Below, piece after piece: positions 2,862-15,447 of a stretch of 19,677 nt of DNA (position 1 is the stretch's first letter; every line of letters starts with the position of its first letter). The notes under the pieces were generated by a model. It was given only the letters and a program-made list of their open reading frames with translations, searched no databases and was not told the DNA's origin. Position numbers and translations under genes: made by a program. The DNA is from Nitrospirota bacterium (GTDB lineage: Bacteria > Nitrospirota > UBA9217): assembly GCA_963741205.1 (NCBI GenBank), contig CAVUHW010000041.1:1-19677 (forward strand), in the 5' to 3' direction.

Positions 2862-3108
2862 TTTTTCAGAGAAACATTCGCCGCTTGATACATCCTGTAG
2901 TTCACGCCTGTCGCTTATCGCAAGTCTGCGTACTTCCCGTCGAATTTACTAATTCCACAACGATAAATCTCACGTTGACCGGCATTGATGTTTGCTGTGG
3001 ACCTGAATGCTGTGTTTATTATTGCACGTCTCTCTCAATTACTCTTGAGAGAAAAGTGATATCCAATTTTCCCGGATTTTGGTATCATAAACTCCTGGCC
3101 TGCACAAG
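2862..3108 (+). repeat. CATCCTG-box repeat copy 3 with ~150-bp extended right arm
   Basis: CATCCTG at 2891; TTCCCGTCGAATTT at 2934 (offset 43); right arm closely matches 6302-6476 through ttttggtatcataaact. Confidence 0.9.
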
Positions 3109-6229: not shown

Positions 6230-6476
6230 ATTCCATTTGAAACATTCGTCGAGTGCTGCATCCTGTAGGTCGCAAAATCATCCAACGGCAAAATTGCGCA
6301 GTTCCTGTCGAATTTGTTAATCACACAACGATAAATCTCACACTTCCAGCATTGATGTTTGCTGAGAACCTGAATGCTGATGTTTATTATTAAACATCTC
6401 TCTCAATTACTCTCAAGGGAAAAATGTTACCCAATTTCCTCTGATTTTGGTATCATAAACTGCTAGCGTGCACACG
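6230..6476 (+). repeat. CATCCTG-box repeat copy 6 with extended right arm
   Basis: CATCCTG at 6259; TTCCTGTCGAATTTGTTAAT at 6302 (offset 43); right arm matches copy 3. Confidence 0.9.
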
Positions 6477-8436: not shown

Positions 8437-9687
8437 TCACATCATCTCCACGGACAGCGGTACGACTGCTACACCCTGGAGTCCCAGACCGGTAAAACCC
8501 CTGACGTATAAGTTCACCGGGATGAACTCATCCAACGTGGGGAAGATCCCGTTGGGGATAACGTTGAACTGGATGCTCGTGAATTCGCCCAGACCGAACC
8601 CATTCATATTGCGCATCACGATATGCAGTAGGGCCGGTACCCCGAAGAACGCGGGTGTGTATTTGGCTGCTATGATATTGTTGTTACCAAAGTCGGCTAC
8701 GCCCGATATGGTAACGACCCCGTCCGCGGTGATTCCTGTGGTCCGATCATGATCGAGCGTGACACCCAGTGGCAGGGCGAGCGTCACATCTAAGGCCGAC
8801 AGGGCGAAGGGAATACCAACCGTTGCCAACTTGAGCACGCCGGTTGCGAATGCGGGAGGCGCGGTGGCTGTCGTTCCGGTCGCGGCTGTCGTTCCGGCCG
8901 CGGTTGTCGTTCCGGTCGTGGTTGTATTGTTGGTGAAGCTTGCAATAGCCCCGCTGATCATGTTGGTCGAATCCGTCGACAGGTCGCCGCCGTGTTCCTC
9001 CTCATCGTCGAACTTGCCGAGAATCCGTTCCAAGGCGTCGTCCAGCGGTTCATTTTCCAACTTGTTTAAGTTAATGAGCAGCGAAAAGGCTCCGCAGGCT
9101 GCAGCGTACTTCTTCTGGTCGTCCGTCTCCCCTCCTGCAACAGGCAGGACCGAGACGATGTTCCTGAGACTAAAGGAGACAGCGACGCTGGCATTTGAAT
9201 TGTCAATCGATTCCGAGGTGAGAGGTCCGCTGCCTTTCGCTTTTTTATAGGCCAGTTCGGTCAGCGGCGTCACGGACACCGTCGTTGTTGCGTTGAGCTT
9301 AACGCCGGTAACGACCGCATGCAGCGGGATCTTGAGAGCGACCGTTGCCCCGCTTGCTTCGTCCGTAAATATTCCGCCTGTAACCTCAACGAATACTGGC
9401 CCTTCATAGGAGCCGAGGCTTACAGAATAGCTCCCTCCGTCAACGGTCTCTCCTGTCCCTATCGGAGCGGACGTGTCTATAAGGCCATCCTTTATCCCGT
9501 ACACTTTTACCGCCGCTCCGCTGATCGGCCCCTTTGACACCATCCCGCTCAGAACGCTTGCCTGCGCAGGTGGGGGAGCCGTCGATGTCGTTGCTTCTCC
9601 TCCAGACTTTCCGTTGCTGCCACAGCCCGTCAACAAAAGTACCACGAAATAGAGAATGGCAATTGGCTTGACGTATCGTATTTTCAT
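8437..9687 (-). CDS. secreted lipoprotein with an N-terminal Ig/carboxypeptidase-regulatory-like domain and a Thr/Ala linker
   Basis: MKIRYVK...LLLTGC lipobox; SGMVSKGPISGAAVKVY, GGIFTDEASG, VSVTPLTELA; the ORF is open from 9777. Confidence 0.75.
   Translation of the reverse strand: MKIRYVKPIAILYFVVLLLTGCGSNGKSGGEATTSTAPPPAQASVLSGMVSKGPISGAAVKVYGIKDGLIDTSAPIGTGETVDGGSYSVSLGSYEGPVFVEVTGGIFTDEASGATVALKIPLHAVVTGVKLNATTTVSVTPLTELAYKKAKGSGPLTSESIDNSNASVAVSFSLRNIVSVLPVAGGETDDQKKYAAACGAFSLLINLNKLENEPLDDALERILGKFDDEEEHGGDLSTDSTNMISGAIASFTNNTTTTGTTTAAGTTAATGTTATAPPAFATGVLKLATVGIPFALSALDVTLALPLGVTLDHDRTTGITADGVVTISGVADFGNNNIIAAKYTPAFFGVPALLHIVMRNMNGFGLGEFTSIQFNVIPNGIFPTLDEFIPVNLYVRGFTGLGLQGVAVVPLSVEMM
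8863..8925. repeat. 18-bp in-frame tandem repeat, 3.5 units
   Basis: (c/g)g(c/t)gg(c/t)tgtcgttccgg(t/c), encoding the TTTGTTTAAGTTAATGTTAT linker. Confidence 0.85.
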
Positions 9688-10236
9688 GGAACTGTACATT
9701 TCACTTCGGTCATGTAGAAAAGAGGAAGGTGCAGGTGACGCCTGCACCGGTAGCAGGAATGGGATGTTCTTCTTCATGGGATGCCTCCCTGCACTACTTG
9801 TAGGGAAAACTTGATTCTAATAAAATGATAGCACGGGCCGCAGATAACGCACTGTTTTAGAATATGGTATAATATTTGTCCTGTTTTAATGTTCGCTTGT
9901 GGCAGCAGCTGAATCAGGAGAACTTTTGCTGTTCTCATGCGAAGGGAGAAGTCTGCTTGGTAGATTTAGTCGGGAAGGCGATGACGTCCTTCAGAGGGGT
10001 TGGATCCCGCCGGAATGGTGGGTCGGATTGGACCGGAATACACATCATAGGTGCTATCGTTTTCGGTATCATTAACTAAAGAAGTTTAAACACAGACCCG
10101 CTGTAGACTGCACTTGGAGGTCATCTTCTGATTTTATTGTTGGCATGTTCCGACCAGGAATTCGTAGTTTTTCAAACGAGCGCAGACGCGAGGTAGTAGG
10201 TGTTGCCGATATATATGATCAATCGTAAAAATAACA

Positions 10237-13536: not shown

Positions 13537-13718
13537 TGTATGATACAACCAGAATACTGCATGCCCGTTGATAGATCGTCTACTCGCTCTGTAGTGAATG
13601 TCGCAATCTTCATGTCGGCAAATGACATGTACCAGCCGAAATTGTTAACAGTATCGCCTTTTCGATTTCACAAGTAGTAGGTGACGCTGATAAATATTAT
13701 GATGCTGAAGGTTAATAA

Positions 13719-13753
13719 ATTCCAGTCGAAACTTTCATCGCGCCCTCCATCCT
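13719..13753 (+). repeat. CATCCTG-box repeat copy 11, left half (interrupted by the IS)
   Basis: attccagtcgaaactttcatcgcgccctc-CATCCT, then non-repeat sequence. Confidence 0.85.
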
Positions 13754-14009
13754 TTTATGTTAAAAGTCAAGCCTGGCTCAGACTAAACAGGCTGGCCGAT
13801 AGGTTTTTCCCTGTTTGCTGTTTGTTTTCGTTAATGGTCATTGAAAGAGTATCAGTCGGAGGATTCCTCCCCTGCATTGATCGTTTGTGAGAAATTTCTT
13901 TGTTGGAGCAAATATCGGTTCTCACAAATGCCCCAGGATCGATTTTCCCGGGACAGTCCATATCCTGATACCCCCCTGTAGGATCCTTTCTCGGGATTTG
14001 TTCGCAGAA

Positions 14010-14216
14010 CGGACAAATCTTTAAAACCACGCTTTTATTAGCAGACATGCCTACATCATTAAAGGCAGCTGCATTTCCTTGATCATGTATTAAAGTTGTG
14101 GGTCCGCAGTCTGAAGTAGTGCAGACACGCTTCATTAGCCGGCTGCAGGATGGAACAAAGCGGTACCCACGATGAATAAGGTTCTAAAATCGGCCGCTCT
14201 AACGTGATCCCGTTTC
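14010..14216 (-). ncRNA. predicted bridge/seek RNA with target-binding and donor-binding loops (ends approximate)
   Basis: Two homologous stem-internal-loop-stem units (GCAGC..UAAUGA..UGUCUGC); guides UCCAUCCU and ACUUCAG match the target; AUAAAAG matches the donor. Confidence 0.8.
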
Positions 14217-15287
14217 TTATTGTATAACCGCAGGCACATACTCCTTCTGATTCTTCAGGACGTATCTGATTCGATTCAATAGTTTTCTGGCGATATGAAC
14301 GATGGCCCTTGTTCTTGGCATGTTCTTAGAGAGGCGTTCAAAGGCCATTAGCAACGCCGGGTCTTTCCGTGTAGCAATCCACGAGCTTTCAATAATCAAA
14401 TGCCGAAGTGATTGGTTGCGCCGGTTGGTAATGCCTGTTGTGATGTCCTTTTCTCCGCTGGAGTCCGTATTAGGAATGAGACCGACATAGCTCGCAAGTT
14501 TGTCGAGTGATCCAAACCGATCAATATTACACAGTTCCGTGAGAAACGTCATGGCGGTGAGTGTGCTGATCCCCGATACGGTTCTTAACAATTTCACATT
14601 AACTTTATATTCAGCTGACCGAGAGAGGACGCGAATGTTCCGGTTCAATTCGACAACGATTCCCCGGATATGGTGTAGCTCTTGGAGATGCACCATAAAG
14701 GAGACATTGCCACTGGCTTTTTCCATGCGAATCGCTTCAAGCCATTTAATGAACTTGCTTGACCAGTTACGAGTAACAATGTCAGTGGGTAGATGAATGC
14801 CATAAAAAGCGAGCATGGACTTGATCTGGTTCTTGCACCGGGTCTGCTTCTTGACCATGTTTCGTCGAGTTCTGATTAAGCTGCGATCTTCGACCTTTAT
14901 CCGCGTGGGAACATAGATTCCTGCGAGCTCTCCGTTCCTATGGCATCGGGCAAGTTTGCGGCAATCTACCTTATCGTTTTTGCCTGCCCGTTCCTTGTCT
15001 GTTGTCGGAATGTCAGCAGGATTTACCACTATGCAGTCGATGCCTTTTTCTCTTAACTGGTCGTGGATCCAGAATCCGGAATAGCCGGCTTCATAAACGG
15101 CATGATAGGTTGCACCAGGGAAGTTCCGATTCAAGTAGTTGGCAAGAACCGATGGATCTGGTGGTTGCGTGAAGGTCTTATGTTCAAACTGCTGAGTCAA
15201 GATGCATACACTCCAACTTTTCTTATGAACGTCCAAACCGACATAAATATGTTGACCGCTGAAATCGAGTTTGCTAATGTTAATCAT
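14217..15287 (-). CDS. IS110 family transposase/recombinase (DEDD RuvC plus Tnp20 domain)
   Basis: VGLDVHKK, VYEAG, KNDKVD catalytic DEDD residues; GLIPNTDSSG serine motif; RBS aaggag. Confidence 0.95.
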   Translation of the reverse strand: MINISKLDFSGQHIYVGLDVHKKSWSVCILTQQFEHKTFTQPPDPSVLANYLNRNFPGATYHAVYEAGYSGFWIHDQLREKGIDCIVVNPADIPTTDKERAGKNDKVDCRKLARCHRNGELAGIYVPTRIKVEDRSLIRTRRNMVKKQTRCKNQIKSMLAFYGIHLPTDIVTRNWSSKFIKWLEAIRMEKASGNVSFMVHLQELHHIRGIVVELNRNIRVLSRSAEYKVNVKLLRTVSGISTLTAMTFLTELCNIDRFGSLDKLASYVGLIPNTDSSGEKDITTGITNRRNQSLRHLIIESSWIATRKDPALLMAFERLSKNMPRTRAIVHIARKLLNRIRYVLKNQKEYVPAVIQ

Positions 15288-15367
15288 GGCAAGTCTCCTT
15301 TCGGTGTATTTTGGTCTTCCTAACGAAAATATACCTTAAGTCAGACTTGCCATTTTAATCATAAGGT

Positions 15368-15447
15368 CTGAAGTTCACGAATTCCCATTCTTGCAAACAA
15401 TCAACGTTACGTTTCGAATTTATTACCGTATGCCCCCAAAATACCCA
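15368..15447 (+). repeat. CATCCTG-box repeat copy 11, right half
   Basis: CTgaagttcacg...ttacgtttcgaatttt...atgcccccaaaatacccaa. Confidence 0.8.

Follow-up and report, generated by a model that had tools for sequence, protein, structure and literature searches.

The window analysed here, a contig of 19,677 nucleotides from a Nitrospirota bacterium, carries an insertion sequence (IS) of the IS110 family with a layout of the IS1111 type, which by its sequence looks active. Downstream of its transposase gene, on the minus strand, we found a segment (14170-14019) that very probably encodes the bridge or seek RNA of the element; this is the best explanation of the evidence set out below. The segment is built of two units; in each, an outer stem is followed by an internal loop and this by a conserved stem-loop of the form GCAGC...RUGUCUGC. 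The two strands of the first internal loop hold the target guides, which together match the element's own insertion site at 13 of 13 positions: ACTTC-AG-GATGGA in the orientation of the IS, or TCCATC-CT-GAAGT on the plus strand, with AG (CT) as the core dinucleotide. The 5' guide base-pairs with the core and the right flank on the top strand. The 3' guide has the same sequence as the left flank and core on the top strand, and so pairs with the bottom strand; the two guides thus read opposite DNA strands and overlap at the core.

An earlier note on this DNA had recognised a bridge RNA in this region by eye, and each string that it quoted is present at the place it gave: UCCAUCCU at 14154-14147, ACUUCAG at 14117-14111, AUAAAAG at 14038-14032 and CUUUAA...UUAAAG at 14095-14019. 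Its reading of UCCAUCCU as the left flank plus core of the target on the plus strand (TCCATC-CT), and of ACUUCAG as the reverse complement of CTgaagt, agrees with the plus-strand sequence that flanks the element at either end.

Relatives of the element were collected by a scan of genome contigs (20 loci) and a scan of metagenome contigs (80 of 125 loci). In the genome-contig scan, the loci with transposases 72-90% identical to that of the window are from Nitrospirota metagenome-assembled genomes, and those at about 62% identity are from other phyla. Of 103 sequences (the three copies in our genome and the 100 loci), 70 fitted a target-unit pattern; some of the other 33 are cut by contig ends. 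The 61 distinct RNA segments were aligned (alignment A1). The left end (AG+ACCTTATGATT) and right end (..AACATARA-AG) of the element were located at each locus for comparison with the flanks. Across the relatives the RNA scaffold is nearly invariant and the two loop strands vary widely: mean identity is 0.91-0.96 in the stems and lowest in the guide columns (0.61 and 0.625), and the 61 RNAs carry 41 different guide pairs.

The guides vary together with the insertion sites. After exact duplicates (L034, L046 and L076) had been dropped, the 5' guide matched its own right flank at a mean of 6.32 of 8 positions (62 insertions), compared with 3.78 ± 0.16 when permuted, and the 3' guide matched its own left flank at 4.77 of 7 positions (56 insertions), compared with 2.79 ± 0.15. 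None of 10,000 permutations reached the observed value for either guide, so the covariation between guide and target among homologues that the earlier note had proposed as a check is found on both sides of the core. The result is the same with a single insertion counted per guide class, for both the 5' guide (6.09, compared with 3.58 permuted; 33 classes) and the 3' guide (4.82, compared with 2.63; 28 classes), again with none of 10,000 permutations reaching the observed mean. Miscalled right ends (for example, at L019 and L079) were left in, which lowers the observed means. From this natural variation, the guides appear to be reprogrammable.

The run AGAC (14112-14109), which overlaps the end of the 3' guide, is conserved in all 61 sequences and reads the same as the core followed by the left end's first two bases. 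Most relatives have CUU at the close of the 5' guide (A1 columns 32-33), complementary to the core and the last base of the right end. For IS621, 'handshake' dinucleotides have been described (PMC13626964), and AGAC and CUU could be their counterparts.

A conserved fold of two units

RNAalifold applied to A1 recovered both stems of unit 1, outer and inner, but of unit 2 the inner one, with double changes in 10 of 25 pairs. With the outer stem of unit 2 added, the structure has 37 pairs in five helices; 94.4% of its cells are paired, compared with 33-47% when the partners are slid by one to three columns, and 13 pairs have changed on both sides. Its covariation score of 0.255 was reached by none of 500 shuffles (0.117 ± 0.005). 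In unit 1, helix 1 is paired in 97.5% of cells and has three pairs with changes on both sides, and helix 2 has four such pairs. Helices 3-5, in unit 2, are paired in 90-98% of cells, with changes on both sides at columns 94/186, 95/185, 108/180, 129/158, 130/157 and 132/155. A further pair that we added, between columns 33 and 66, is unsupported (unpaired in 43 of 59 cells). Several G-U pairs in A1 fit an RNA, or a single strand, with the sequence of the minus strand.

In the window, the outer stem of unit 1 runs from GUGGG at 14170 (the start of GUGGGUACCG, 14170-14161) to CCCAC at 14098 (the end of GCGGACCCAC), with GCAG...CUGC between the guides, and that of unit 2 runs from CUUUAA (14095) to UUAAAG (14019). 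The centroid fold of the window sequence has the same two units and leaves both target guides unpaired in internal loops, whereas base-paired guides were what the earlier note had named as a refutation. That note had also taken it as established that this is the two-loop architecture of IS110 bridge RNAs. Its claim holds, supported by the five covarying helices, the guides in loops and their covariation with the flanks; the strand order and layout are those of the IS1111 type and not those of IS621. When a profile of the RNA was run against the genome with nhmmer, it found only the three full copies of the IS and one fragment (on contig C4), and no orphan copies of the RNA.

The second unit and the alternative readings

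The 3' strand of the internal loop of unit 2, AUAAAAG, is identical to the last 5 nt of the right end plus the core, and the same identity is seen in 54 of the 60 sequences for which a right end was called. It takes two forms, AUAAAAG with ..ATAAAAG (17 sequences) and AUAGAAG with ..ATAGAAG (37 sequences), so that loop strand and right end covary at one position. It is likely that unit 2 serves as the donor loop for the right end. The 5' strand of this loop has the family consensus AAGRUNCU. Allowing one bulge, its complementarity to the core plus left end (AG+ACCTT) covers 4 of 7 positions in 7 sequences, 5 in 19, 6 in 32 and all 7 in 3. We found no consistent place for another partner when the 8-mer or its complement was sought, with at most one mismatch, in the 70 nt of each IS end. 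For IS621, one donor guide is described as pairing discontiguously, with nine RNA bases over seven DNA bases (PMC11208160). In the window copy the left donor guide matches without interruption only at AAGG, as the earlier note had said, and at 5 of 7 positions if a bulge is allowed; the donor loop proposed there is thus shown for one of its strands, and for the other a donor role is suggested by partial complementarity.

A narrower reading, which we think unlikely, is that only the guides of unit 1 act, as a seekRNA of about 75-85 nt. Unit 2 would then serve as a scaffold, as a signal for processing or as a module that binds protein, and it would chiefly be the protein that recognises the IS ends, by way of the subterminal inverted repeats rather than RNA pairing. 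The element does have long subterminal inverted repeats, and in ISEc11 an 82-nt seekRNA is reported to be enough for transposition on its own, with the role of the long form left open (PMC11187229). The incomplete match between the 5' strand of unit 2 and the left end points the same way, as does the fact that this strand varies while the left end is invariant. However, such a reading would have to accommodate a 3' strand that is the same as right end and core for 7 nt and changes along with the A/G difference of the right end, a unit 2 that repeats the architecture of unit 1 down to the GCAGC...UGUCUGC module, and a family consensus for the 5' strand that, when one bulge is allowed, agrees with AG+ACCTT at 6 of 7 positions; discontiguous pairing of one donor guide is described for IS621.

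Far less probable is a role for the conserved segment as DNA, for example as a site of transposase binding or synapsis. It has in its favour that the RNA is known here from sequence alone, but compensatory substitutions maintain the helices, as do G-U pairs, whose counterparts on the other strand would be A-C mismatches, and relatives in the same protein family have been shown by experiment to use RNA (PMC11208160, PMC11187229). The name of the NCBIfam family to which the transposase belongs likewise includes the term RNA-guided. Chance matching of short guides (7-8 nt), or membership of the region in an overlapping ORF (open reading frame) of 122 aa (13767-14135), we rejected on the covariation and guide-flank permutation tests as having next to no plausibility: the pattern of variation is that of paired stems, and the ORF has no Pfam family and lies for more than half its length in a right-end extension that is absent or much shorter in distant relatives.

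Some observations nevertheless weigh against our interpretation of the segment as a bridge or seek RNA. Folded singly, the window sequence is weakly better than its shuffles (z = -0.94 for 14010-14216; z = -1.97, 8/200, for 14016-14178), and the minimum free energy fold, as opposed to the centroid, pairs four nucleotides of the 3' loop strand with the 5' side of the loop; it is because of the comparison with relatives, and not the single sequence, that chance is excluded. A scan of the whole window at the Rfam gathering thresholds returned no family. The 33 of 103 sequences that lie outside the target-loop anchor pattern were excluded from later analysis. Some guides fit their flanks poorly (3/8 in L029 and L046, 2/8 in L047 and 2/8 in L025, some of which may have miscalled ends), and the two other full copies in our genome, on contigs C9 and C5, have one mismatch per guide to their own flanks. 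In unit 2, the covariation between 3' strand and right end is at a single A/G position that differs between clades and may reflect one or two evolutionary events, and the behaviour of the 5' strand, with its match of 5/7 in the window and its variation opposite an invariant left end, counts on the same side. Among the sequencing runs listed for this sequence none is of RNA, and the transcript, with its ends and processing, is a predicted one.

In the mechanism that we infer, the RNA would be transcribed together with the transposase and bound by it. The two guides of unit 1 would together define where the element inserts, at the 13-bp site ACTTC-AG-GATGGA, and in which orientation, and unit 2 would hold the donor, with its 3' strand (AUAAA-AG) on the right end and core and its 5' strand partly on the core and left end. 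The DEDD/serine recombinase would then exchange strands at the AG core, which would leave no target duplication. No sigma-70-like site was found in the integrated element. When the ends are joined, a -35-like hexamer near the right terminus and a -10-like hexamer near the left one would form the pair TTGACT-17-TATGAT (counting the ACCT of the left end), a candidate promoter that exists only in the joined form, and transcription would be strongest from this pair in the excised circle. The seekRNA paper likewise proposes that transposase and long RNA are co-transcribed from a junction promoter (PMC11187229).

The element and its target repeat

Table. Features of the insertion sequence, its RNA segment and its insertion site in the window (LE, left end; RE, right end).
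Feature	Position	Strand	Basis or detail
IS110-family insertion sequence	13754-15369	minus	1,616 bp, one core copy included (AG in IS orientation, CT on plus strand)
Transposase, 356 aa, DEDD/RuvC-like N-terminal domain and C-terminal serine domain	14217-15287	minus	Pfam, NCBIfam
Structured core of predicted bridge/seek RNA, two units, downstream of transposase	14019-14170	minus	A1, RNAalifold, pair counts, centroid fold
Unit 1, target-binding: outer stem GUGGGUACCG/CGGACCCAC, two-guide internal loop, inner stem-loop GCAGC...GUGUCUGC	14098-14170	minus	covariation
5' target guide UCCAUC plus core complement CU (UCCAUCCU), pairing with top strand (IS orientation) AG+GATGGA	14147-14154	minus	8/8 contiguous, own right flank
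3' target guide, ACUUC with core AG, same sequence as left flank and core on top strand	14111-14117	minus	7/7, own left flank
Unit 2, putative donor-binding: outer stem CUUUAAUAC/GUUUUAAAG, internal loop, inner stem-loop GCAGCUGCC...GGCAUGUCUGC	14019-14095	minus	covariation
5' donor strand (putative) AAGGAAAU, partial discontiguous complementarity to core and left end (AG+ACCTT)	14073-14080	minus	bulge-allowed pairing
3' donor strand AUAAAAG, last 5 nt of right end plus core	14032-14038	minus	RE comparison
Right-end extension, 265 nt, between RNA and terminus, predicted hairpins	13754-14018	minus	fold z = -1.6
Left subterminal inverted repeat	15339-15364	minus	starts 3 nt inside end; LE against reverse complement of RE
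Right subterminal inverted repeat	13755-13778	minus	starts 1 nt inside end; same local alignment
TTGACT, -35-like hexamer, 13 nt from right terminus	13765-13770	minus	read from sequence; putative function
TATGAT, -10-like hexamer, 4 nt inside left end	15358-15363	minus	read from sequence; putative function
Target half-site TCCATC (13746-13751) and core CT (13752-13753), RE junction	13746-13753	+	sequence, copy alignment
Core CT (15368-15369) and target half-site GAAGT (15370-15374), LE junction	15368-15374	+	sequence, copy alignment
Left part of IS-interrupted host repeat copy; right part resumes at 15368	13702-13753	+	nhmmer matches at 13702, 15368

The transposase belongs to the IS110 family: it has an N-terminal DEDD domain (PF01548 DEDD_Tnp_IS110, 1.7e-15) as well as a C-terminal domain that carries the conserved serine (PF02371 Transposase_20, 8e-17), and it scores 209.5 bits against a cut-off of 140 for NCBIfam NF033542, 'IS110 family RNA-guided transposase'. 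Its alignment to the structure of the IS621 recombinase (8wt6) is weak (E = 2.4e-5), yet D, E and D..D line up in it, as does the serine motif (GL-P----SG). The best matches in a plasmid collection are 33-36% identical. We dropped an attempt to place the element in a subgroup by means of annotated plasmid IS, where all matches are at most 36% identical and thus uninformative.

The genome (50 contigs, 4.27 Mb) contains three full copies of the IS, on contig C41 (the window), C9 (97% DNA identity to the window copy) and C5 (93%), in addition to fragments. The transposase gene is intact in all three, and the proteins are identical at 349-353 of 356 residues (98-99%). When the copies are aligned with their flanks, similarity ends at ACTTC-AG|ACCTTATGATT on the left and at AACATAAA-AG|GATG on the right, in transposase orientation. 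CT is present at both junctions in the window, and an uninterrupted paralogous copy of the host repeat, on contig C45, has ACTTC-AG-GATGGA contiguous with a single core dinucleotide; since both halves adjoin in this empty site, insertion was site-specific and nothing was duplicated except the shared 2-nt core. In four soil DNA runs, contigs share only the stretch from about 13734/13748 to about 15373/15376 with the window and then diverge into other flanks, which independently confirms the boundaries and shows that other insertion contexts exist. Among the contigs of these four runs we saw neither a circle junction nor an empty-site joint.

The subterminal inverted repeats align locally over 26 columns, of which 21 match and 2 are gaps. 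From the stop codon (14217) to the terminus (13754) the non-coding DNA measures 463 nt, compared with 80 nt upstream of the transposase. Much of the downstream DNA is the right-end extension, which is absent or far shorter in more distant relatives: measured from where the target loop starts, the right end is about 395-413 nt away in most loci with transposases 81-90% identical (L036, at about 206 nt, is an exception) and about 197-345 nt in the remaining loci. On contig C4 (12678-14253) there is a broken copy of the IS, with about 1.26 kb of other DNA lying between the last part of the donor unit and the right-end extension. Many distant relatives (L018, L020, L021, L023, L053, L058, L065 and L071-L075, among others) have 150-250 extra bases within the left end, between ACCTTATGATT and GGCAAGTCT, with the conserved motif ..GGCTAAAATCTCTCCGC..GGATAACTCTCGAA... 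This insert, which the window element lacks, may be a second non-coding module.

The sequence interrupted by the IS is a repeat of about 100-145 nt. Between 168 and 11734 on the plus strand, the window has 11 co-oriented copies of it, separated by short plus-strand ORFs that include a response regulator, CAP, MscL, HU and an OmpA-like protein, and the layout looks like that of a gene-cassette array. The stretches of about 170 nt after two of the copies (2934-3106 and 6302-6474) are 81-91% alike (families D1, D10 and D4), which indicates a shared cassette unit longer than the repeat itself. Opposite the array genes, on the minus strand, an ORF of 446 aa (8437-9777) has only a weak, sub-threshold match to an RTX N-terminal domain.

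An nhmmer profile built from the window copies found first 60 and then 75 copies of the repeat, which are co-oriented within each of 18 contigs and often lie near contig ends. The profile replaced a count of a loose repeat-core motif, whose 606 matches were mostly noise (for example, a shuffle of one contig gave 19 matches, compared with 58 in the real sequence). The repeat is intergenic, its conserved centre CATCCTG[A/T]A contains the target, and the IS always has the opposite orientation to the repeat (three of three copies).

The C9 and C5 copies of the IS carry variant guides (ACUAC, UGCAUC). We compared the guides with the 70 of the 75 repeat copies that have a recognisable centre: those of the window copy have three perfect free sites and five with one mismatch, those of the C9 copy two and six, and those of the C5 copy none and seven. 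By this comparison, the differences between the three guide sets correspond to real sequence variants of the repeat. Among the uninterrupted copies in the window, mismatches to the 13-bp target number two (copy at 2847), three (168, 4504 and 6212), four (1142, 7346 and 11596) or five (10233), so that the description of copies 1, 3, 4, 6 and 7 as near-matches in the earlier note is loosely true, with the numbering of the copies guessed by us. Near position 7581 of contig C5, one copy of the repeat reads CATCCT-TTTAT-GTAGTT where others read CATCCTG-TAGTT. The five extra bases are the first bases of the right end of the IS as seen on the plus strand, and this copy may be the scar of an imprecise loss of the IS.

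With regard to attC sites, several copies of the repeat have ends of the form ..AAC / GTT.., and hairpin folding was clearly better than in shuffles for one of five copies (z = -2.4) and not for the other four. The genome has an IntI gene above the cut-off (C18:131988-132923, 367.5 bits), with no repeat beside it, and none of three related IS-carrying genomes has an IntI above the cut-off. In complete RefSeq genomes, the paper on IntegronFinder 2.0 counts just two attC clusters without an integrase in the phylum Nitrospira (PMC9024848). The genomes behind L011 and L024 (G001 and G002) have many identical copies of a tyrosine-recombinase gene (about 295-322 aa), which match the integron-integrase model in two separate parts, below the cut-off, and look like another multi-copy mobile element of these Nitrospirota.

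Putting these observations together, we tentatively propose that the window element represents a distant and independent IS110/IS1111 lineage of soil Nitrospirota that has specialised on the centre of a cassette-array-like repeat, with guides that drift along with the variants of the repeat and a weakened left-end donor strand. We rate this joint scenario as possible rather than probable. Under it, the three copies carry three guide sets, each with perfect or one-off free sites, and the repeats are possibly the attC sites of sedentary integrons or of arrays without an integrase. If it is true, this clade has lost two of seven left-end pairing positions relative to the family consensus, a loss that could naturally restrain either the capture of the donor or the direction in which the reaction runs.

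Comparison with known systems

The concept of a bridge or seek RNA has been in print since 2024, and the window element adds a family to it and leaves the concept unchanged. What the family contributes is a well-resolved set of natural, predicted RNA-guided recombinases, with about 100 loci, 41 guide pairs, and a scaffold and guide positions that are clearly defined. It comes from uncultured bacteria of soil and sediment, far from the enterobacterial and pseudomonad elements that have been studied, and within a single genome its guides show microdiversity. Families of this kind can be drawn on to choose orthologues and to learn the rules of guide length and mismatch.

An IS1111-attC group of elements is reportedly treated by Post and Hall (2009) and by Tetu and Holmes (2008), and the IS621 bridge RNA, in addition to the work cited below, by Hiraizumi et al. 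(2024). Members of the IS1111-attC group are said to occupy one fixed position, in one orientation, in a co-oriented repeat that separates short genes, as the window element does. Unlike them, the window element inserts at the centre of its repeat, and this repeat is only a candidate attC; its transposase is distant (about 24% identical) from those of IS4321/IS5075, a comparison that did not include the attC-targeting members themselves. Among the matches listed in our literature search, no paper combined Nitrospir-, IS110 and attC, although the supplementary tables of PMC11208160 and PMC11187229 may list relatives.

The closest parallels are with the IS1111-type seekRNAs of ISEc11, ISPa11, ISKpn4 and ISPst6 (Siddiquee et al. 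2024, PMC11187229). As in those elements, the RNA is predicted in a long non-coding region downstream of the transposase, a position that Durrant et al. also give for the IS1111 group, where an RNA was predicted in the right end of 93% of elements (PMC11208160), and that is shared by some IS110-type elements (PMC11187229). In IS1111-type seekRNAs the top-strand complement comes first, 5' of the bottom-strand complement, the reverse of the order in an IS110-type element (PMC11187229); the window element has the former order, with matches that overlap at the insertion point. Also shared are the subterminal inverted repeats, set in from the ends (7-17 bp or more in the group), the lack of a target duplication, the GL-P----SG motif, and a target that is a repeated, potentially folded intergenic sequence. 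The window element differs from the IS1111 types studied in its Nitrospirota host, in targeting the centre of a repeat and not one end of an attC, in its 265-nt right-end extension, in the low identity of its transposase to those of IS4321/IS5075, and in the length of that protein, which at 356 aa is just over the 330-350 aa quoted for the group (PMC11187229).

With the bridge RNA of IS621 (Durrant et al. 2024, PMC11208160), the predicted RNA shares two internal loops, target first and putative donor second, each with two strands that are directed at opposite strands of the DNA and have a 2-nt core in common, a recombinase with DEDD and serine domains, and one donor strand that would pair discontiguously. 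Unlike IS621, the window element has its RNA at the other end, the order of its top-strand and bottom-strand guides is reversed, its core reads AG in IS orientation and CT on the opposite strand, and its subterminal repeats are long; between the two proteins, similarity is detectable only at the weak level given above.

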